A stretch of 64,000 bases of DNA, from assembly GCA_044346175.1 (NCBI GenBank), contig JBIIZQ010000001.1:17224-81223 (forward strand). Reading direction: 5' to 3'. The notes under the pieces were generated by a model. It was not told the DNA's origin. It did no database searches and saw only the letters and a program-made list of their open reading frames with translations. Position numbers and translations under genes: made by a program. Origin of the DNA: Vampirovibrionales bacterium. Its GTDB lineage: Bacteria; Cyanobacteriota; Vampirovibrionia; Vampirovibrionales; JAJTHC01. Of this stretch, positions 10,832-37,392 are shown in pieces. How positions within the stretch are numbered: the first letter of the stretch is position 1; each line of letters begins with the position of its first letter.

Positions 10832-11012
10832 GGACAAGGTAAACCAAGTATCCTAAAAAAAGAAGCCCTATGGGTTCGCCTTTTTGACTACTTAAAAAAT
10901 AAACATCCTCTATACTTGCAGTGTGGGATGCGTGTTCATCCTTGATAACCTAGATATTTGGGTTCTTCTATGTTTCGTATGGCGTATAGATGTCACATAG
11001 AGATGTTCTGGA

Positions 11013-13088
11013 TTGCGAAAGTTTTTTATGATGGTCTTTATAGCGGGGTGGATGCACCTGTGGCGAGTTCACCCTCGTACTATTTCCTTTTTGTGGGCTA
11101 TGGTGAGTGGGTTCATCTTGCTTGGTATGAGTCGTGGTGTTTTTTGTGTCTCTATTTCGGAACCATCGTTGGAAGCACCGTCTCTTCATGGCGAATTAAG
11201 CACGCCACCCTCCGCCCCGCCATCTCCTAGTGAGCCATCTCTTGGCCTGCCCCCTGCTTTTCAAAGCACGGAGCCAAAAGCAACCGATACTGAACCCTTG
11301 CTTCTGCCTCAGATGCCTCCTTCTTCTTCGACTACCTCCACCCCTGCTCCTAGTCAAGTATCTAGTCCATCTTCTCAAGATGCAAAAACAGTAGAAGTGG
11401 AGGAGGCAGACGATGAAATTCCCCCCTCGCTCCAAGGGTTAACCTCTCAAGAGCGTTTGCGTCAAGAGTCTGAGCCAGCGACCAAATTCTTAACCCCCGC
11501 ACCTGTGCAGAATACCCCTTCTCAGTTGCCTCCTTCACGCCCCATTTATCCTCCGCAAAACCCTCAGGGAAGAGGCACTTTTCAACCCTTAGAAGTGCCA
11601 TCCCCCCATACAGTAGGGCGTAAGCACTTGACGCTTGAGACCATTCTCAACGAACTTCCCAAACAAGCCATTGACCTTCATCTCCTTCAAGCAGAGACTC
11701 GGAGCTTAGAGGCTCAAAAAAGACGGGAAATGGCAAAACTCCTCCCCAATTTAGGGGTAGACAGTACCTTGGAGAGAACTTCAGGCAGTATGGGTACCAA
11801 CCGAGGTACCTTGCGTGTTGACCAGCAAAGCTACCGTTCTCAAATTCGTGCAACGTTGAACCTTAATCTTGGTGGTAGGGAGTTCTTTCAATGGAAAAGT
11901 ATAGATTTTCAACGCCTACAGAAGCAATGTCAATGGGAAGAAACGTTGAACCGTCGAACGCTCGATGCACTCACGGCGTATTATCAATGGCAAAGAGAGC
12001 TGAGTTATTTTGTCATGATGCAGGCTCTTTTAAAAGAGATGCGTCGTCTCTCTGAGCAACTTACTTTGGATAAAAGTATTACTGACGTAGCAACCTCTGA
12101 GGCTATGGACTATCAAAGAAGTTTGAGCAGTCGTTTGATACGCCCCGCACTGCTTGACCAGCAATTACGTACCCTCCGAGCTGAAACCAGTGCAAACCAG
12201 TATCTGAGCCAGTTACTGATAGGTTTGAATCGTGACATTACGAATCTACAAGTGCCTCAAGTCCTCAATAGTCCTAAACTCCCTGATTATCAGGCTTATC
12301 AAACCCCCTATAACCTTTCATGGCTTGAGCCTGCTAAGATGCTTCCTGAACCATGGCAGGTACGTACTATCCCCTTACTTCCTGAAAAACTTTTATCTAT
12401 CAGTGTTTTACAGCTGAGTTATGAGGCATCCGCAGCGGCACAATCTCCTCAAAAGCAGCGTGAGGTTTCTCAGGCTCTCAGTCTTAGCAACCTCCTAACG
12501 ATTGCCAAACAAAATCGTCCCCTTTTAGCCCAGCGTTATTTGCAACTTGCGGTGATTGAGTACGCCTTTAAGGCAAAACGTGCAGACTTACTAAGCCCTA
12601 CCTTGTTAGTGGATGCTTCTGTGAGAAATGTTGCCGCTGAAGTAGGTCAACCTGAACACAGCACCCGATACTACGGTGGTTTAAGTTGGTACCCTTTACA
12701 GGGCTTAGGGCAGAGCTATTTGGCTGAACAGGCGGATATGCAGGCACGACGTGAAGCGTCACGCTTGGCTTATGAGGCTACGTTTAACCAAGTAACACTG
12801 AACCTCCAGAATCAGCTTTTGCAATACCAGTTGTTGGAAAAACAATATCAGGTTGCTGAAAGTAAGTTAAGGGATACTTTGAATTTGGTTCAAGACCTTA
12901 AAGAAGGACAGGCGGATGCACTGGGGGTTTGGCTAAGAACGATGACGGTGTGGTCTGATGCACAATCTGAGTATTTATCGACCGTGCGTGACTTAAATCT
13001 GATACAACTTCAGATTTTAGCAGAGCTGGGTTTACTTACCCCAGAGTGGCTTTTAAAGCATGTCTTGATACCCCAAGAGGCTTCATGA
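11013..13088 (+). CDS. TolC-family outer membrane efflux protein with a Pro/Ser-rich N-terminal linker
   Basis: Two helical OEP-like repeats with Q/L-rich coiled segments. The N-terminal 150 aa is P/S/T-rich. The track start is a TTG and the true start is uncertain (ATG at 11028 or 11100). Confidence 0.55.
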   Translation: MRKFFMMVFIAGWMHLWRVHPRTISFLWAMVSGFILLGMSRGVFCVSISEPSLEAPSLHGELSTPPSAPPSPSEPSLGLPPAFQSTEPKATDTEPLLLPQMPPSSSTTSTPAPSQVSSPSSQDAKTVEVEEADDEIPPSLQGLTSQERLRQESEPATKFLTPAPVQNTPSQLPPSRPIYPPQNPQGRGTFQPLEVPSPHTVGRKHLTLETILNELPKQAIDLHLLQAETRSLEAQKRREMAKLLPNLGVDSTLERTSGSMGTNRGTLRVDQQSYRSQIRATLNLNLGGREFFQWKSIDFQRLQKQCQWEETLNRRTLDALTAYYQWQRELSYFVMMQALLKEMRRLSEQLTLDKSITDVATSEAMDYQRSLSSRLIRPALLDQQLRTLRAETSANQYLSQLLIGLNRDITNLQVPQVLNSPKLPDYQAYQTPYNLSWLEPAKMLPEPWQVRTIPLLPEKLLSISVLQLSYEASAAAQSPQKQREVSQALSLSNLLTIAKQNRPLLAQRYLQLAVIEYAFKAKRADLLSPTLLVDASVRNVAAEVGQPEHSTRYYGGLSWYPLQGLGQSYLAEQADMQARREASRLAYEATFNQVTLNLQNQLLQYQLLEKQYQVAESKLRDTLNLVQDLKEGQADALGVWLRTMTVWSDAQSEYLSTVRDLNLIQLQILAELGLLTPEWLLKHVLIPQEAS

Positions 13089-27591: not shown

Positions 27592-27802
27592 CCTCCCACA
27601 ACTTACGTGAATGTCCATACAACCTATTACCCACACACCACAGCAACAAAAGGTTCCTACAAAGTAAAAGAGGGATGTTTGTTTCTTTGTGTGTGGGTCG
27701 TATACTATCCATACTTACATACCTTACCATAGTCATCATGACCATAGTCATTATTCACCCTTCTTAAAGCTCACCCTTATTACATTACAGATAAACACAT
27801 TC

Positions 27803-29338
27803 ATGCCCTTACTTAACGCACAACACGCTCTATTTTCAGTGATGTCTGCTAGTCATCGTACAGCTCGCTTTGGAGCAACCTCCTTTCCGAAAGCTGTTGT
27901 TAACACTGATTTTGACGGCACTATCACGGCAACTCGCATGACCAAAAACCCTGATAACACCTTCACAACACAGACTATTATTCCTCAAGCAACCATTGAG
28001 GCAACGCAAGCACTGCATCCTGATACCACTTTTATTGTGAGTACAGGACGCTCACTCGCAAGTTTTAAAAATGCCGCCATGAGACATCAAAAGGCTTTAG
28101 ATGCCATGCGTCCTATGGATGCGCTTTTACTGGCACGAGGAACAGACATGTTTATCAATCAAGTTCCTTCCAAAGATGGTAAAACCATGGTCAAACTGCC
28201 AAACAGTACGTTTATCGGTCGACTCTCCTACCATTACCCAGGCGACCACAAAGAACTCATTACCCCTTCAAGCACTTATCAAAAACTTCTAAGGTGGCAT
28301 CTTAACGGAAAAGAAGGGGTATCAAAAGAATCTTCCCTAGAAACGTGGGATGTTAGCAAGATTTTTCTTGCCATGACCAACCACCTCAAAATGCAAGGCT
28401 ATACGCCCTTACAGCGTCCTTGGCATATGGATTTAATCCAACGAGGGCTAGAGCCTCAACAGATTTGGGTTAAAACGTTTCAAAATGTCCCATCTACCCA
28501 AAAAACTGCTCAGGCCGTTAATCGAGACGTAAGTATAGGCGTTTTTGTACGTGAAGATGCCGATTTGCGGGATGAACATCTCCGCCCCATTCCGCATAAA
28601 GCAACCATTAAAACCGACAACATGATACTGATTGCTCCCTTACCCTGTATGAGTAGCAAGTATGCCCACCAACATTACTACCAGCCATGGCAACTAGGCC
28701 AAGTCAAAAAAGACCTCAAAGAAGCTTACGAAAAAGAAGTTATTGCAAAATCCAATCTTTTGGCACCTCCCATTTTAAGCGACACTGAGCAGGAACTACA
28801 ACAAGCGTCCCAACACACCCAAGAGCCTCTTAAAGCTGATATTCCTTTAATACCCACTGCAAAGCGTTTTGATAGAGCCTATATGGAGATAGGCCCCACC
28901 TCAAAAGAGGAGGCACTTGCCTTTTCTCTTAGCGTCCTTGAGGCACAACATCATGAAAAAGCCCATCCACGTATGAAGCATGCCGTCACACTGGGAGACG
29001 GTCAAAATGATGTCGGCATGCTCACGGCCGACAAAATCACACTTTATAAGCCTAAAACAAAAGATGGCACGGATTGGGAAGCGATACCCGAGCATCAAGT
29101 AAGTGTGCATGGTGTTGCCTTGGGGAAAAAAGAAGAAATCTTGAAAACCCTTCAAGACAGGAAATATAAGCCACTTGCCAAGCAAGGTAAGCTCATCCAT
29201 AGTATTCAAGGTCAAGCACCAAAGATACTCCACAATACGCATGCAAAAATTGTGTCGGTACCTGAACATGACCCTGACCAACACAGTGAATGGGCGGCAG
29301 GCATTCACGCCATGAAGACCCTTAATGTATTAGTCTAG
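27803..29338 (+). CDS. HAD-IIB (Cof/SPP-like) phosphatase with large insertion, paralog 2
   Basis: Canonical motif I TDFDGTITA, motif II FIVSTGR, motif IV VTLGDGQNDVGML. C-terminus SEWAAGIHAMKTLNVLV is shared with paralog 1. The ORF track begins at 27689. Confidence 0.6.
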   Translation: MPLLNAQHALFSVMSASHRTARFGATSFPKAVVNTDFDGTITATRMTKNPDNTFTTQTIIPQATIEATQALHPDTTFIVSTGRSLASFKNAAMRHQKALDAMRPMDALLLARGTDMFINQVPSKDGKTMVKLPNSTFIGRLSYHYPGDHKELITPSSTYQKLLRWHLNGKEGVSKESSLETWDVSKIFLAMTNHLKMQGYTPLQRPWHMDLIQRGLEPQQIWVKTFQNVPSTQKTAQAVNRDVSIGVFVREDADLRDEHLRPIPHKATIKTDNMILIAPLPCMSSKYAHQHYYQPWQLGQVKKDLKEAYEKEVIAKSNLLAPPILSDTEQELQQASQHTQEPLKADIPLIPTAKRFDRAYMEIGPTSKEEALAFSLSVLEAQHHEKAHPRMKHAVTLGDGQNDVGMLTADKITLYKPKTKDGTDWEAIPEHQVSVHGVALGKKEEILKTLQDRKYKPLAKQGKLIHSIQGQAPKILHNTHAKIVSVPEHDPDQHSEWAAGIHAMKTLNVLV

Positions 29339-29985: not shown

Positions 29986-31341
29986 ATGGCTTCCTCTTCG
30001 TCGTCTCTCACCTCTGCTTTTCAGAATGCTTCAAGCACTTTAGAAAAGCTTCCCATTTTAGTCGCAAAGTTTGGCGGTACTTCAGTGGGGGATGTAGAGC
30101 GTATTCGGCGTGTAGCAGACATTGTGGTCAATCAAGCCAAAGCAGGATATCGAGTCGTAGTCGTGGTGTCTGCCATGAGTGGTGTCACCAACAGCCTTAT
30201 TGAGCTTGCCACCAAAGCCAAAGCCCACACCCGTAGCGGCCGTGAATATGATGCACTGCTTGCCACAGGCGAAATGGTCACAACCTCCTTACTGGCCCTT
30301 GCCATTCAAGACCTGGGCTACAAAGCCATAGGTTTAAACGGACAACAAGCAAAAATCCATACAGAAGATATACCGAGCCGAGCAAGAATCGTTCGGATTG
30401 ACACCAGTGCTATTTTAAAACAGTTAGATGAAGGTCATATCGTCGTTGTGACAGGTTTTCAGGGTATTGACAGTGCGGGGCATTTCACCACACTCGGACG
30501 TGGAGGGTCAGATACCTCTGCCGTGGCAGTGGCAGGAGCCTTGGAAGCTGCCCGTTGTGATATTTACACCGACGTACGTGGGGTATACTCTACAGACCCT
30601 CGTATGGTCACTGAAGCCGTCAAACTTCCAGAAGTGGCACACGTAGAAATGCTTGAACTCGCCCGATTAGGGGCGAAAGTCTTACACCCTCGCTCTGTAG
30701 AAACGGCCCGAGAGTTTAATGTTCCTGTATGTGTTCGTTCAACGTTTGACCTTGAGGATAAAGGCACTATGATTTTGCATGAAAATGAAATGTCCCCTTC
30801 TGAGCATGGCATTGCTGGCGTAGCCTGTGACTTAAACCAAGCTCGTGTGGCTGCCGTGCAAGTGCCTGATACCCCTGGGGTCGCTGCTAAAATATTCCAA
30901 ACCCTCGCACAGCATAACATTTCTGTGGACATGATTATTCAGTCTTTAGGTGAAGACGGTGTATCAAACGACATTGCCTTTACAGTCAGTACCAATGACG
31001 TACAAGATGCTAAACGACTCATGGAACAGTTGCAACCTCAAATAGGTGCAAGAGCCATTCAGGTAAACGATGCCATTGCCAAAGTCAGTATTGTTGGGGT
31101 AGGCATGGTGGACAAACCAGGCTTTGCAGCAGGTATGTTCCAAGCCCTTGCCGTTGAAAACATCAATATCCAAATGATTTCAACCAGTGAAATTAAAATC
31201 AGTGTACTGGTAGACCGTACTGATGCACAACGTGCTGTACAAGCCATTCACCGCCAGTTTTTCCCTATCGCACATCGTGACTTAGGACAAGCCGAACCCG
31301 CCATGGCAGGTGTTGTGAGTAACCAAAAGTTAGGGTACTAA
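29986..31341 (+). CDS. lysC: aspartate kinase with two C-terminal ACT domains
   Basis: VAKFGGTSVG and VVVVSAMSGVTN motifs. AAGGAG sits 9 nt upstream of the ATG at 29986. The ORF track begins at 29926. Confidence 0.9.
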   Translation: MASSSSSLTSAFQNASSTLEKLPILVAKFGGTSVGDVERIRRVADIVVNQAKAGYRVVVVVSAMSGVTNSLIELATKAKAHTRSGREYDALLATGEMVTTSLLALAIQDLGYKAIGLNGQQAKIHTEDIPSRARIVRIDTSAILKQLDEGHIVVVTGFQGIDSAGHFTTLGRGGSDTSAVAVAGALEAARCDIYTDVRGVYSTDPRMVTEAVKLPEVAHVEMLELARLGAKVLHPRSVETAREFNVPVCVRSTFDLEDKGTMILHENEMSPSEHGIAGVACDLNQARVAAVQVPDTPGVAAKIFQTLAQHNISVDMIIQSLGEDGVSNDIAFTVSTNDVQDAKRLMEQLQPQIGARAIQVNDAIAKVSIVGVGMVDKPGFAAGMFQALAVENINIQMISTSEIKISVLVDRTDAQRAVQAIHRQFFPIAHRDLGQAEPAMAGVVSNQKLGY

Positions 31342-31374: not shown

Positions 31375-31866
31375 ATGCCAAAACCTGCTGAAACAGATAC
31401 CCCCATGCTCTCTGTGGGGCAAGTCGCACCCGATTTTTCATTACCCGCTTCCCTAGGTGGTTCACAAGCCACCGAGGTATCGCTTGCTGGCTATAAAGGT
31501 CAGTGGCTGGTGATTGTCTTTTACCCCAAAGACCAAACTCCTGGATGCACTCGCCAGCTTTGTGCGTTACGTGATGATTTTGCATCGTTTCAAGCACTTG
31601 GTGCTACAGTGTTAGGGAGTAACTTTGGCTCTTTGGCAAGTCATCAAAAGTTTTCTGAAAAACAAGGCTACACGTTTCCTATTGCCGTAGACACCGACCT
31701 CACCATGGCACAAGCTTACGGTGCTTCAGCCACAGACTCTGAAACAGGCAAACGTAAAATTGTACGTACCGTCTATGTGCTTACCCCTTCGGGAACGGTT
31801 GCGTTTGCACAACGAGGGATGCCTTCAGACGAAACATTACTCGCTATCATTCGGAGCGAAGCCTAG
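31375..31866 (+). CDS. bcp: Bcp/PrxQ-type peroxiredoxin
   Basis: VGQVAPDFSLPA, FYPKDQTPGCTRQLCALRD (peroxidatic and resolving Cys) and TFPIAVD motifs. The start may be at 31405. Confidence 0.8.
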   Translation: MPKPAETDTPMLSVGQVAPDFSLPASLGGSQATEVSLAGYKGQWLVIVFYPKDQTPGCTRQLCALRDDFASFQALGATVLGSNFGSLASHQKFSEKQGYTFPIAVDTDLTMAQAYGASATDSETGKRKIVRTVYVLTPSGTVAFAQRGMPSDETLLAIIRSEA

Positions 31867-32948: not shown

Positions 32949-33249
32949 GCGGCACGAATCGCACACAACCTAGACACGCTATAGCAGCCATGATAAAATA
33001 TGATATTTTCATACTCATTTTGAATACCATAAATACGATGTACTCTCCCTCCTCCCCTCAATCAACACAAGGGGTTATGATAAGGGGTATTGCTTCGAGG
33101 CTTTACAGAATAGTCAGCCAGCCCCTTTTTGTAGCATTTTAGCAAAATTAGCCAGCCTGCTTCTTTTATCCTTGTAATACCCGCCTTAAAATTCGAGCAT
33201 TTGCCCAGTTCTCACCGTCCTCTGTACCCTAACTTGTCAGGAAAGCTGT

Positions 33250-34869
33250 TTGTCCATGATGTCTGTTACCTCTCCTCACCCTACCGCCACTACAAACCCT
33301 CTCCCTACACATTTTCCTACCACTTTGGACGCTGAAACGCTTTTACTTCCTTTAGACACTCAGGAACAAGCCCTTTTGATGCAGGATGGGCATAGTGCTG
33401 AAGCACTCTTTAATGATGTGATGGGACGTACCTACGACGATTTTATTATCCTACCAGGACAAATCCGCTTTGGGGTAGATAGTGTCACCTTGGATACTTG
33501 GCTCACCCGTAACATCCGCCTGAAAACCCCCATTGTAAGCTCTCCCATGGATACCGTGACGGAATCAAGCATGGCAATTGCCATGGCTTTAATGGGTGGT
33601 ATTGGGATGATTCATAGTAACAATACCCCTGAAGAACAAGCCGAACAAGTACGTCAGGTGAAACGCTACAAAAATGGGTTTATTACAAACCCCGTCGTAC
33701 TTTCTCCGCAACATCGTGTGGTTGATATTCGGCGTATCAAGGAAACCTACGGGTTTTCAGGCGTACCTATTACCGAAAACGGGCAAATGGGTGGGAAGCT
33801 TGTTGGTATCGTCACCAACCGAGATATTGACTATATTGAAGATGCAGAAACCCTTATTTCCAGTGTCATGACCACTGAAGTCATTACCGCCTCTGAAACG
33901 GTATCTTTAGAAGAAGCGAACCGTATTCTGAAGCAGAGCCGTAAAGGAAAGCTACCCATTATCAATGAAGCTGGTGAACTAGTAGCCCTTACCTCTCGGA
34001 AAGACCTACAGAAGAACCGTGATTACCCCAATGCCTCCAAACGTACTTCCGACAAACGACTTTTGGTTGGTGCTGCGATTGGTACTCGGGTAGAAGACAA
34101 ACACCGTGTTGCCGTGTTGGCAGAAGCTGGCGTGGATGTCGTGGTGATTGACTCCTCACAAGGTGACTCAACCTTTCAGCTTGAAATGGTGCAGTGGATT
34201 AAAAGTGAGTTTCCTCAAGTAGATGTCATTGCGGGTAATGTAGTGACATGTTTACAAGCCAAGCACCTTATTGATGCGGGGGCTGATGCGCTACGTATTG
34301 GCATGGGTGTGGGGTCTATTTGCACCACACAGGAAGTTATGGCGGTGGGTCGTCCACAAGGTACGGCGGTGTTTCAGGTTGCTGGGTATTGTCGGAGTCG
34401 TGGTATTCCTGTGATTGCCGATGGGGGTATTTCCTCGATTGGTCATGTCACGAAAGCATTAGCATTGGGTGCCTCTATGGTCATGATGGGTTCCATGCTT
34501 GCGGGTACCGATGAAGCCCCTGGGACTTACTTCTATAAAGATGGCGTACGTCTGAAGAAGTATCGTGGGATGGGTTCCATTGAGGCGATGCAAAAAGGCA
34601 GCTCAAACCGCTATTTCAGCGACCAAGAACGTATTTTGGTTTCGCAGGGTGTCACGGGTTACGTCGTGGATAAGGGTTCCATCCAGAAGTATGTCCCTTA
34701 CTTGGTACAGGGCATTCGTCATGGTCTGCAAGATATTGGCGTACGTTCCGTGATGGCATTACATGCCGCCCTACAAAAAGGCTGGTTACGTTTTGAGTTG
34801 CGTTCCCCTGCAGCACAAATTGAGGGTAAAGTACACCACCTTCACAGCTACGAAAAATCGGCTTACTAA
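33250..34869 (+). CDS. guaB: inosine-5'-monophosphate dehydrogenase, eukaryotic-type
   Basis: [29 protein letters not shown], the catalytic loop [12 protein letters not shown], two CBS domains, and C-terminus VHHLHSYEK. Confidence 0.9.
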
Positions 34870-35428
34870 CGCCCCATAAAAAGCTTTTATCTCACACACC
34901 TTGCTGGGGTATTCTTGGCAGGGTTGTGATGGTTTTTTATCGTACATTTTGATGAATTGATGGGAGTGGGTAGCGTTTTTGGGTGCCATGTGATATAGTC
35001 ATGAGTGAAGGAATTGCCACAAGCATTCTGTGGGTTGATAGTACCATGTCAATCGCAACGCTCATGCGTGAGCCAAGCCCCACAGACGCATGTTAAAAGC
35101 CTACATTGTTTTTAGGCTTTTGAAGGGTGTTTCTTTTCAGTAGGGTACTATGGGCTTATCCAAAGCTTGGTACCTCCTCACTGAAAAGAGCCTCCTTTAG
35201 GGTTTGAGACCTTGCGGTATCTTCATTTTAAATGCTTTATTTTTCTCTTCAGTAGCTATCCTAAAAAAGTTTTAGTAAGTCATCATGCCACGTAAGCCCC
35301 TCACAGAAACCCTTTCCTCACAAGCTGTTGCACTGAGTGAGCCAGACCTTGCAATCCGTGTAGCTCCTGAAGATATGTTGCCACTCAAAGAAGCCAACGC
35401 CTGCCAACGACCCAACACAAAACCCACC

Positions 35429-35962
35429 ATGCAAGCACTCCCTACGGTGCTTTTAACCCTGTTGGATGAATGTCTCCCCGCACCCTTCTTCGTGGTGGAT
35501 ATCACGGTGGGACAACAAAAAAAACTTCCCAAACTGACACTTTATGTTGATTATCAAGGCAAGGAAGCCATTAGCCTTGATGCCTGTGGACAGTTGCACA
35601 GGAGCCTTGCTTTTTGGCTGGAAGACCCCGCCCATGAATACTGGTGGCCCTTTGAAGATTATGCCTTGGAAGTTTCCTCTCCAGGTATTTTTAGACAACT
35701 CACCACGCCACGAGAATGGGCTTTTTATGCAGGGTCACCCGTTACTTTGAAGCAAAAGCGTCGTCCGCCTCAAGTGAAAACGTTGCTTACAGCGACCAAA
35801 GGGAAACTGCTCGGGGTGGCTGAAGATGGTGAAACCCCTCTTATAGAGGTCTCTCCTGACGTGGCACCGTTAGCATTAGAGGCAACCCAGTTTGGACCTG
35901 TGGTATTAACGCTTGACCCCGTTTTAAAGTTTGATGCCCCACTGAGTGATATTTCTGTGTAG
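35429..35962 (+). CDS. rimP: ribosome maturation factor RimP
   Basis: The EVSSPGIFRQL motif (RimP EVSSPGldRPL) and a position immediately upstream of nusA. The ORF track begins at 35285 and the start is uncertain. Confidence 0.55.
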   Translation: MQALPTVLLTLLDECLPAPFFVVDITVGQQKKLPKLTLYVDYQGKEAISLDACGQLHRSLAFWLEDPAHEYWWPFEDYALEVSSPGIFRQLTTPREWAFYAGSPVTLKQKRRPPQVKTLLTATKGKLLGVAEDGETPLIEVSPDVAPLALEATQFGPVVLTLDPVLKFDAPLSDISV

Positions 35963-36066: not shown

Positions 36067-37392
36067 ATGATGGCAATTCGTATTGGTTCAACATTGATGG
36101 AAAACGTTGAGATTCTTGAGCGTGAACGAGGTATCTCGAAAGAACTTATTTTAAGTTCTTTGAAAGATGCCATGTTAGCAGCCTATAAGCGTTATGCCGA
36201 ATTAAAGTCGTTAGAGTGCATCGTATGCCAACTGAATGAGAAATCAGGCGAAATTGCCATTGTGGAGCAACGCAAAGTCGTCGAGGCTCTCACGGAAGAA
36301 ATACCAGTGACCGTCTCCACAACGGAAGACCTTGAAGACGCAGTGACAACCGAAGCCGAAGCAACGACCCCAGCAGAGGCTTCAACCGCCACGGAAGAGG
36401 TCGTAGTGTATGAGGCACCTCAACCTGTGGACCCTTTCACGAAAGCGAAACATCAGATTGTATTGAAAGAAGCACGTCGGCTTCAACCCGATATTCAGGT
36501 AGGTGAAATCCTAGAGATTGACCAAACCCCTGAAGAATTCGGTCGTTTAGCAGCGGGTGCCGCCAAGCAAGTCATTACACAGCGTATTCGTGATGCTGAG
36601 CGTGCCTTGATTGCCCAAGAGTTTGAAGAGCGTCGCCATACCGTCAGTACGGGGATTATTCAACGTATCGAAGGTCAAAACGTCATTATCAGCATCGGTA
36701 AAACTGAGACTATCCTACCTAAAAACGAGCAGGTAGCGGGAGAAGCCTACCGAGTAGGGAATAAAATCCGTGTCTTTATTCTTGAAATCCGTGAAATCTA
36801 CCGGGGCGTTCCTCAAATCGTAGTCACTCAGAAACACCCCTTCCTCGTTCGAGAGGTGTTTGAGCTTGAAGTCCCTGAAATTGAAGACGGTGTGGTAGAG
36901 ATTCGTTCCATTGCACGTGAAGCTGGCTTGCGTACAAAAGTAGCCGTATGGTCAAACGACCCCAATGTCGACCCTCAGGGTGCATGTATTGGAAAGCGTG
37001 GTAGCCGTATTCAAGCGATTGTCAACGAACTGAAAAACGAAAAAATCGACATCATTCGTTGGTCGCAAGACCCCATTGAGTTTATTCATCATGCCCTAGC
37101 ACCAGCAAAAATCCTCAATGTGCAGTTTAACCCTGAAACTAACCAAGCCCTTGTGGTGGTACCCGATGAGCAACTCTCGTTAGCCATTGGACGTGAGGGT
37201 GTTAACGTGCGTTTAGCGTCTCGTCTTACGGGTGTAAAGTTAGATATTAAGAGCTTATCGCAAGCACAAAAAATCTTGTCACAAGCACAAGCTAACGAAC
37301 CACACTACGCCACACATCATGCCTCTGAAGACCACTCAGACATGTACACACAAGCGTTACATGAAACTGAAGATACACCAAGCCTGACTTAA
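36067..37392 (+). CDS. nusA: transcription termination/antitermination factor NusA
   Basis: S1 domain and two KH domains (IGKRGSRIQAIVNELKNEKIDII), plus an acidic insertion. AAGGAG sits 8 nt upstream. infB does not follow. Confidence 0.9.
   Translation: MMAIRIGSTLMENVEILERERGISKELILSSLKDAMLAAYKRYAELKSLECIVCQLNEKSGEIAIVEQRKVVEALTEEIPVTVSTTEDLEDAVTTEAEATTPAEASTATEEVVVYEAPQPVDPFTKAKHQIVLKEARRLQPDIQVGEILEIDQTPEEFGRLAAGAAKQVITQRIRDAERALIAQEFEERRHTVSTGIIQRIEGQNVIISIGKTETILPKNEQVAGEAYRVGNKIRVFILEIREIYRGVPQIVVTQKHPFLVREVFELEVPEIEDGVVEIRSIAREAGLRTKVAVWSNDPNVDPQGACIGKRGSRIQAIVNELKNEKIDIIRWSQDPIEFIHHALAPAKILNVQFNPETNQALVVVPDEQLSLAIGREGVNVRLASRLTGVKLDIKSLSQAQKILSQAQANEPHYATHHASEDHSDMYTQALHETEDTPSLT

Follow-up and report, generated by a model that had tools for sequence, protein, structure and literature searches.

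A eukaryotic-type IMP dehydrogenase encoded by Vampirovibrionales, and its probable origin by ancient transfer from eukaryotes

A 64-kb stretch of a Vampirovibrionales genome, analysed here over its whole length and hereafter called the window, contains one gene of the IMP dehydrogenase (IMPDH) family in total. The gene is a single uninterrupted coding sequence (CDS) of 537 aa plus stop at 33256-34869 on the + strand, in agreement with the initial annotation of the window, which had described it as free of introns; for the purposes of genome annotation it is simply guaB. The open reading frame (ORF) on this strand opens at a TTG at 33250 and ends at 34869, and the in-frame TTG would add 2 aa. 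Because the public gene call for a 100% identical protein (P0001) has 537 aa, the ATG at 33256 was taken as the start. A Shine-Dalgarno-like AGGAAAG box was found about 10 nt upstream of this ATG. The Pfam profile PF00478 (IMPDH/GMPR barrel) matched with E = 2.3e-135 over profile positions 2-345 of 345, and two CBS stretches (Pfam, E = 1.6e-14) form the Bateman domain inserted in the barrel. The protein scored 646.8 bits with the NCBIfam IMP dehydrogenase equivalog TIGR01302, for which the cut-off is 481.5. Models for GMP reductase, GuaB1 and GuaB3 stayed far under their cut-offs (NF005869, 223.9 vs 549; TIGR01304, 98.7 vs 342.1), and other bacterial equivalog models were also under theirs (NF005493, 314 vs 585; NF005311, 276 vs 779). 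The catalytic C356 in the GSIC loop and the IMP-binding D389 are aligned with human C331 and D364, and the flap dyad R452-Y453, which serves in water activation and sets IMPDH apart from GMP reductase, is aligned with human R429-Y430. The gene and its features are as follows.

33256..34869, + strand: IMP dehydrogenase CDS (ORF, identical 537-aa public call, Pfam IMPDH and CBS matches, TIGR01302)
33256..33381, + strand: N-terminal extension, residues 1-42, Pro/Thr-rich, ahead of the eukaryote-type 'QDG.sAe.LF' segment (the human IMPDH1 alignment begins at residue 43-44)
33673..34023, + strand: Bateman (CBS-pair) regulatory domain, about residues 140-256, with the GDP1, GDP2 and GDP3 site residues (two Pfam CBS matches, Ashbya-numbered residue map)
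33940..33951, + strand: RKGK motif, residues 229-232, with Gly231 (alignment; motif defined in PMC4660370)
34294..34296, + strand: Arg347 codon, human R322, Lys in bacterial GuaB (alignment)
34321..34323, + strand: catalytic Cys356 codon, human C331, GSIC loop (alignment)
34609..34614, + strand: Arg452-Tyr453 catalytic dyad on the flap, human R429-Y430 (alignment)
34645..34647, + strand: Gln464 codon, human Q441, Glu in bacterial GuaB (alignment)
34831..34866, + strand: C-terminal tail of 12 residues, eukaryotic type, ..VHxLHSYEKxxx (ORF translation, alignment)

A sequence search against the PDB revealed the highest similarity with human IMPDH1 (670 bits), human IMPDH2 (648), Ashbya gossypii IMPDH (647), Cryptococcus IMPDH (609) and Trypanosoma IMPDH (~545), whereas the best bacterial chain (3tsb) scored 378 bits, Pseudomonas ~354 and an archaeal chain 295. 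Chance does not come near to accounting for this eukaryotic character. The window protein is 62.8% identical to human IMPDH1, 62.7% to a dictyostelid enzyme and 59% to that of a red alga, as compared with 39-42% for bacterial-type GuaB (E. coli 39%). Identity with animal, fungal, amoebozoan, red-algal and stramenopile IMPDHs is 58-63% from end to end, with indels in common, and it is 49% with the divergent plant enzyme. The claim of the initial annotation that the protein follows eukaryotic IMPDH almost end to end was thus borne out, and the N-terminal, shared-block and C-terminal motifs that it quoted are all present in the ORF. Also as in the eukaryotic enzymes, the N-terminus has the 'DG.sA..lF' segment, 5 residues are inserted ahead of the last strand, and the C-terminus has the ..VHxLHSYEK tail. 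With the human enzymes and Ashbya IMPDH (7rfe, 1jcn, 1b3o, 4z87; 58-63% identity, 647-670 bits) the window protein shares the catalytic Cys, the Arg-Tyr dyad, R322, Q441, the (K/R)KGK motif and the three guanine-nucleotide sites, in addition to the N-terminal DG..F segment, the 5-aa insertion and the YEK tail. It differs from them in its extra Pro/Thr-rich N-terminal extension of about 40 aa, in having RKGK for KKGK and EGK for EGG in a C-terminal segment, and in being encoded by an intronless gene of a bacterial chromosome near rimP-nusA. The EGG/EGK segment is presumably part of the K+ site.

The residues that distinguish the two IMPDH types point in the same direction. R347 and Q464 of the window protein correspond to human R322 and Q441, which are K and E in E. 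coli and Pseudomonas. R278, F307 and a Gln occupy human positions 253, 282 and 277, where bacterial enzymes have G, G and H. We take R322/Q441 to be the mycophenolic-acid site, and R/H253 with F/Y282 to form the adenosine subsite and to stack on the adenine. According to a 2026 preprint, the cofactor site of prokaryotic IMPDH is relocated and mycophenolic acid resistance is ~1000-fold greater. The RKGK motif of the window protein has Gly231 in place of Glu (RVEK in E. coli, RIEK in Pseudomonas); Buey et al. described 'KKGK' as the footprint of GTP/GDP-inhibited eukaryotic IMPDH and 'RIEK' as its bacterial counterpart (PMC4660370). Inhibition by GTP/GDP is described as confined to eukaryotic enzymes, with the GDP sites defined on Ashbya IMPDH (PMC4660370), and feedback through the third Bateman-domain site is regarded as eukaryote-only (PMC4660370, PMC9375230).

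The three guanine-nucleotide sites defined on Ashbya IMPDH were located, one residue at a time, in the window protein and the comparison sequences. In the predicted non-canonical GDP3 pocket, at Ashbya N118, G119, L196, N200, L224, L229, K240 and K245, the window protein has N, G, L, N, T, L, K and K, the corresponding residues of E. coli being S, G, R, L, I, F, K and G. The GDP1 and GDP2 residues and the Bateman-interface Arg residues (Ashbya R167, R226) are kept or conservatively replaced. Changes from Ashbya to the window protein among the GDP and interface residues are conservative at most (S166N, D186E, T227K, L224T, F171Y, K207R), whereas the same positions differ in E. coli and Pseudomonas. 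Conservation of GDP1, GDP2, GDP3 and the interface is at least that of red algae or a stramenopile, and far above that of plant IMPDH. The plant-type sequences P0131 (Olea) and P0123 are without KKGK (e.g., LEF for KGK), have A for N198 and have lost most GDP1 and GDP3 residues; in appearance, the bacterial enzymes of the eukaryote type are more 'canonically eukaryotic' than the plant enzymes.

Canonical GuaB (E. coli, Pseudomonas, Bacillus) catalyses the same reaction with the same fold, domain order, catalytic Cys and Arg-Tyr dyad. However, it is only 39-42% identical to the window protein, has K322/E441, G253/G282/H277 and a RIEK-type motif, and is without the GDP3 pocket, the N-terminal extension and the YEK tail. 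None of the canonical GuaB marks (K322/E441, RIEK, no N-terminal extension, a ..KEAPNY C-terminus) was found in the window protein. The window enzyme is a eukaryotic-type IMPDH, in which every testable eukaryote-specific mark is present.

The genes around it are bacterial. Domain matches confirmed the flanks named in the initial annotation, lysC and bcp upstream and rimP and nusA downstream, and the features of the surroundings are as follows.

29986..31341, + strand: aspartokinase (lysC), upstream neighbour (AA_kinase and ACT domains)
31375..31866, + strand: Bcp-like peroxiredoxin, upstream neighbour (AhpC-TSA/Redoxin)
32971..32999, + strand: promoter-like TAGACA-17-TAAAAT with TG, within the upstream intergenic region of 300 bp (consensus match only)
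35285..35962, + strand: RimP, downstream neighbour (RimP_N, weak match)
36067..37392, + strand: NusA, downstream neighbour (NusA_N and KH_NusA domains)

A DUF4149 membrane protein and a coiled-coil protein are also encoded upstream. The identical public protein lies on a 274-kb contig, and an independent Logan contig is 100% identical across 10.7 kb. An NCBI metagenome-assembled genome (MAG) labelled Vampirovibrionales (L001), with 93% protein identity over residues 1-537, is collinear from lysC through IMPDH at 74-81% nucleotide identity. The GC level is flat across the region, with 0.481 for the IMPDH gene. Its GC at third codon positions is 0.449 (window mean 0.415 ± 0.036) and its codon-usage distance 0.79 (mean 0.86 ± 0.16), so that the comparison of composition with the neighbours proposed in the initial annotation showed an ordinary gene, in line with an ancient event. 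The IMPDH gene is therefore genuinely bacterial and not an assembly artefact, and the event behind it is ancient, the composition of the gene being ordinary for the window.

The gaps around the gene are long for the window (300 bp upstream; 415 bp non-coding, 34870-35284, to rimP), and neither an Rfam family nor a convincing terminator was found in them. Over the whole window, Rfam revealed no regulatory RNA and only two tRNAs (15428 and 47724), each at a distance of over 12 kb from IMPDH. The neighbourhood of the gene varies between Vampirovibrionales lineages. The arrangement in the window is shared only with the close MAG L001 and not with L006, L002, L033 or L034, and conserved synteny was accordingly dropped as evidence of history. 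Copies in other lineages have different, clearly bacterial neighbourhoods (fumarase with TruB; Lgt; GltX; GatB with RimM and S2). Plasmid and phage collections contained no eukaryote-type IMPDH, their best matches being bacterial-type guaB at 43-46% identity. A mobile element as vehicle was also considered, but nothing near the IMPDH gene points to one, no search aimed at integrase genes having been made.

The eukaryote type is not restricted to the window. The window protein has its nearest homologues (64-75% identity) in V. chlorellavorus and in MAGs labelled Vampirovibrionales, Vampirovibrio or 'Melainabacteria', which together contribute dozens of proteins; many are on contigs of 0.2-2.9 Mb, and their scores are interleaved with those of dictyostelid and other eukaryotic sequences. 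The invariant core (N198, G207, R224, R322, Q441 and the catalytic residues) is kept in 117 of the 119 best matches to the window query that were analysed, and 105 of the 119 fit one of the two commonest full 16-position signature patterns. These relatives, 62-75% identical to the window protein, are of the same type and have the same signature residues. The window copy differs from them in its Pro/Thr-rich N-terminus of about 40 aa (also in P0002 and L001), in RKGK and in EGK near the C-terminus. A Coleofasciculaceae MAG protein (P0100), the sole match labelled as a photosynthetic cyanobacterium, clusters with P0106 inside the V. chlorellavorus group, and it is probably from a Vampirovibrio contig binned with, or growing on, a cyanobacterium rather than a cyanobacterial gene.

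A scan of species-representative genomes also matched Spirochaetota and Leptospiraceae MAGs, at 57-60% identity. Cultured Leptospira (L. idonii, L. kobayashii, L. fainei, L. selangorensis, strain GIMC2001) and numerous Leptospirales MAGs have an IMPDH of the eukaryote type, and because it is the standard IMPDH of Leptospira, the window copy is much less singular. A search from one of the spirochaete copies found the KKGK/N198/R322/Q441 signature in all 120 best matches (P0351-P0470; also in L002-L005). Identity between these enzymes and the window protein is ~60%, eukaryotic IMPDHs being at least as close to it, and their C-terminal tail has diverged to ..YSYTKPSMRVE. The type also occurs in the metagenomic groups P0019 and P0035, in bacterial contexts. 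At the end of a Betaproteobacteria MAG contig (L021, 6001-6405), the last 135 residues of a eukaryote-type IMPDH were found at 63% identity; this partial copy could represent a further bacterial carrier or a mis-binned contig.

Among named bacteria the type thus appeared in two orders only, plus the metagenomic groups and the partial Betaproteobacteria copy. Every sampled eukaryotic group has it: animals, fungi, Amoebozoa, red algae, plants, a stramenopile and Trypanosoma. Other members of the two bacterial phyla differ, the Borrelia enzyme 1eep behaving as bacterial-type in the PDB ranking and photosynthetic cyanobacteria reportedly having a distinctive IMPDH variant in common with Chloroflexi (PMC1636346). 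Because the type is found in all sampled eukaryotic groups and other members of these phyla have different enzymes, parsimony favours acquisition by the two bacterial orders. Moreover, since a whole order and Leptospira have the type, its presence reflects a very old cross-domain gene exchange and not an oddity of one genome. The initial annotation had offered a transfer or an unusual lineage-specific clade as alternatives, and each held in part, as there is a lineage-wide Vampirovibrionales clade and it is of eukaryotic type.

Divergent IMPDH genes of the eukaryote type (45-50% identity) were also observed on giant-virus-like contigs, L030 (10001-11521) and L031 (8327-9766). Near them are genes for a major capsid protein of nucleocytoplasmic large DNA viruses (NCLDV), P11_C, DUF5871 and ribonucleotide reductase, and in L031 a GMP synthase gene (10977-12572) lies ~1.2 kb from IMPDH, which suggests that these contigs carry viral guanine-nucleotide synthesis modules. 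The giant-virus IMPDHs belong to the eukaryote-type side of the tree, and some members have a YEK-like tail; however, they are far more divergent than the window protein (45-47% identity) and have lost the KKGK motif and the GDP3 residues. Representatives of intermediate identity (45-52%) were considered as prokaryotic sisters of eukaryotic IMPDH and rejected, as the two with long contigs proved to be from giant viruses. Another, of 522 aa and 52% identity (P0128; L029, 1745-3313), has H253, K322 and Q441. Its 9-kb contig is full of small ORFs without Pfam matches, contains an Fpg-type glycosylase gene, and could be of viral origin. Two algal entries are unusually long, P0003 (a Coscinodiscus transcript, 806 aa), in which the N-terminal and Bateman segments are duplicated internally, and P0326 (Porphyridium, 918 aa); their length may stem from errors in assembly or in the gene models, or from genuine fusion.

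The phylogeny of the family was analysed by neighbour joining (NJ) on maximum-likelihood distances and with our own likelihood code (Gonnet-derived rate matrix, four gamma categories, best alpha ~0.7), using a curated data set of 73 taxa and 482 columns and 200 NJ bootstraps. Eukaryotes, giant viruses, Vampirovibrionales and Leptospirales form a eukaryote-type clade with 96% NJ bootstrap support, separated from bacterial-type GuaB by a stem of 0.69 substitutions/site. This support and this stem rule out a bacterial clade merely converging on the eukaryotic motifs, the outcome that the initial annotation had named as refuting its reading. Inside the clade the tree is star-shaped; on a backbone following the accepted eukaryote phylogeny, the stem of Amorphea measures 0.028 and that of Archaeplastida 0.007. 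Identity within the bacterial groups is ~62-75% and between eukaryotic supergroups 57-66%. The window copy pairs with P0002, the two having longer branches and an extended N-terminus. Among the eukaryotic sequences, those of plant type diverge most (48-53% identity). Each bacterial group was placed on every branch of the constrained backbone, with the following best placements, likelihood weight ratios (LWR) and supports from resampled estimated log-likelihoods (RELL).

Window group (B1): Amoebozoa stem, LWR 0.98, RELL 0.64
V. chlorellavorus group (B2a): Amoebozoa stem, LWR 0.99, RELL 0.72
Window copy and P0002 alone: Amoebozoa stem, LWR 0.84, RELL 0.46
Spirochaete group (B3): Opisthokonta stem, LWR 0.999, RELL 0.78

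When all bacteria were forced into one group, which makes the eukaryotes a clan, the log-likelihood (lnL) was 20.2 ± 10.3 worse than with separate nested placements, and the eukaryote clan split appeared in only 1 of the 200 NJ bootstraps. The data therefore lean to bacterial groups nested separately within the eukaryotes, which is suggestive of eukaryote-to-bacterium transfer, probably twice. The Leptospirales copy, for which a separate attachment point on the Opisthokonta stem is favoured, was probably acquired independently of the Vampirovibrionales copy. We consider it somewhat better than an even bet that Vampirovibrionales have a working IMPDH of the eukaryotic subtype because the ancestor of the order took the gene from an early, slowly evolving eukaryote and passed it on vertically.

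Several observations weigh against this reading. Deep internodes measure only 0.007-0.03 substitutions/site, every bacterial group joins the star 0.02-0.06 substitutions/site from its centre, and the next-best placements are within about 1-1.5 standard errors (SE). The placement of one Vampirovibrionales subgroup (B2b) was fully ambiguous. The 20-lnL gap amounts to only ~2 SE, and the better tree was picked after seeing the data. Rooting with the outgroup was uninformative, as bacterial-type sequences joined fungi, a stramenopile or plants at similar likelihood. Finally, the likelihood tests were run with code written for this analysis and a matrix derived from Gonnet, the species tree being fixed as backbone and the eukaryotes being few, without Discoba and Metamonada. 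Of the ancient eukaryote-to-bacterium transfer proposed in the initial annotation, the age is well founded, and the direction is only mildly favoured by likelihood placement and taxonomic distribution.

The strongest alternative is the opposite direction, in which the type arose in bacteria and was acquired by the eukaryotic stem, the Vampirovibrionales and Leptospirales enzymes being surviving relatives of the donor. Bacterial clades and eukaryotic supergroups arise from one common centre of near-zero length, the divergence within the former nearly matching in depth that between the latter; the outgroup cannot place the root, and eukaryotic IMPDH scores higher with bacterial than with archaeal PDB chains (378 vs 295 bits). 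However, this direction needs the eukaryote clan, which is 20 ± 10 lnL worse and recovered in 1/200 bootstraps, and only two named bacterial orders have the type, in phyla with other types elsewhere (Borrelia 1eep; the Chloroflexi-like cyanobacterial variant). We regard it as unlikely, and as slightly less likely still that bacteria invented the 'eukaryotic' IMPDH together with its third GTP-sensing site and that the eukaryotic stem lineage received it from them. Cross-domain transfer of IMPDH has a documented precedent in Cryptosporidium, a eukaryote with a bacterial-type IMPDH (PMC545779, PMC4777385); that case is opposite to the transfer favoured here both in direction, from bacterium to eukaryote, and in enzyme type.

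V. chlorellavorus is a predator of Chlorella, and a predatory Vampirovibrio-like cell might have taken the gene, perhaps recently, from red or green algal prey. The best non-red-algal matches of red-algal IMPDH (P0113 and named Rhodophyta) are indeed Vampirovibrionales enzymes at 64-69% identity, a near-reciprocal relation, and NJ weakly joined P0113 with the window sequence (49%). However, attaching the two larger Vampirovibrionales groups to the Rhodophyta stem cost 6.7-8.7 lnL (RELL 0.04-0.13), and for the window copy with P0002 this stem was disfavoured by only 2.55 ± 7.4 lnL (RELL 0.27). A clade of bacteria and Rhodophyta appeared in 0 of 200 bootstraps, and on these likelihoods and bootstraps a red-algal donor was set aside as disfavoured, least clearly so for the window copy with P0002. 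In addition, the plant-type sequences are the most divergent of the eukaryotic ones, the composition of the gene is fully ameliorated, and the gene is common to a deeply diverged order. A prey-derived gene is thus very improbable, and the likeness of the red-algal and Vampirovibrionales enzymes probably reflects slow evolution in both.

Ancient paralogy, with both IMPDH types in early bacteria and the eukaryote-like one surviving in a few bacterial lineages and in eukaryotes, is compatible with the unrooted star tree. However, very many independent losses would be required, and no bacterium with both types was seen, though no systematic search for one was made. Because the bacterial copies are no further from eukaryotes than eukaryotes are from each other, a split older than the domains is also disfavoured, and we give this explanation very little credence. 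Artefact, whether eukaryotic contamination, chimeric assembly or convergence of an ordinary GuaB, can be dismissed for practical purposes in view of the long bacterial contig, the identical and syntenic independent assemblies, the end-to-end eukaryotic similarity with common indels, and the clade with 96% bootstrap support.

Two further ORFs of the window were noted. At 39738-40763 (+), a 341-aa ORF comprises about five tandem copies of a ~34-aa unit (..NTSNNGNTDQNFPPFPPREMLEKLQAQYGNQGQY..), with DNA repeats seen as 45-nt matches at 40243, 40449 and 40551, and has an EF-hand-like C-terminus (DTNQDGQISAEEW). At 27689-29338 (+), upstream of lysC, a 549-aa ORF has HAD-phosphatase-like motifs (DFDGTIT ... 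GDGQNDVGML) within a long unfamiliar sequence.

Ancient transfer from eukaryotes, probably more than once, remains the reading we prefer. The ancestor of the order Vampirovibrionales would have acquired its IMPDH from an early, slowly evolving eukaryotic lineage, and the gene, which may have displaced the native guaB, would then have been inherited vertically as an ordinary housekeeping gene. Judging from its residues, the enzyme is predicted to oxidise IMP with NAD+ to XMP, which is the committed step in making GMP. The reaction would pass through a thioimidate at Cys356, with the Arg452-Tyr453 dyad assisting in its hydrolysis. NAD would be bound with its adenosine end in the eukaryotic position, and the enzyme is probably sensitive to mycophenolic acid. 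By analogy with the Ashbya and human enzymes, GTP/GDP in the three Bateman-domain sites may drive tetramers into compact, inhibited octamers (PMC4660370). GTP synthesis in such a bacterium would then be controlled in the eukaryotic style, instead of by the ATP/GTP competition or (p)ppGpp that regulates bacterial IMPDH (PMC9462843).

The sequences are already public, annotated just as 'IMP dehydrogenase', and this kind of enzyme is well known. In our literature search, however, no paper was found that remarks on a eukaryotic character of IMPDH in Vampirovibrio, Melainabacteria or Leptospira. To judge from the sequences, the eukaryotic regulatory design appears to be intact in two entire bacterial orders, one of them with the pathogen genus Leptospira. 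If biochemistry bears this out, there are three consequences. The case would be an old, order-wide addition to the short list of eukaryote-to-bacterium transfers of core-metabolism genes. IMPDH inhibitors of the 'bacteria-selective' kind, directed against the cofactor site of bacterial enzymes, would be expected to miss these organisms, and mycophenolate-like drugs may hit them. Finally, these bacteria would provide a bacterial system for the study of eukaryote-style GTP homeostasis.

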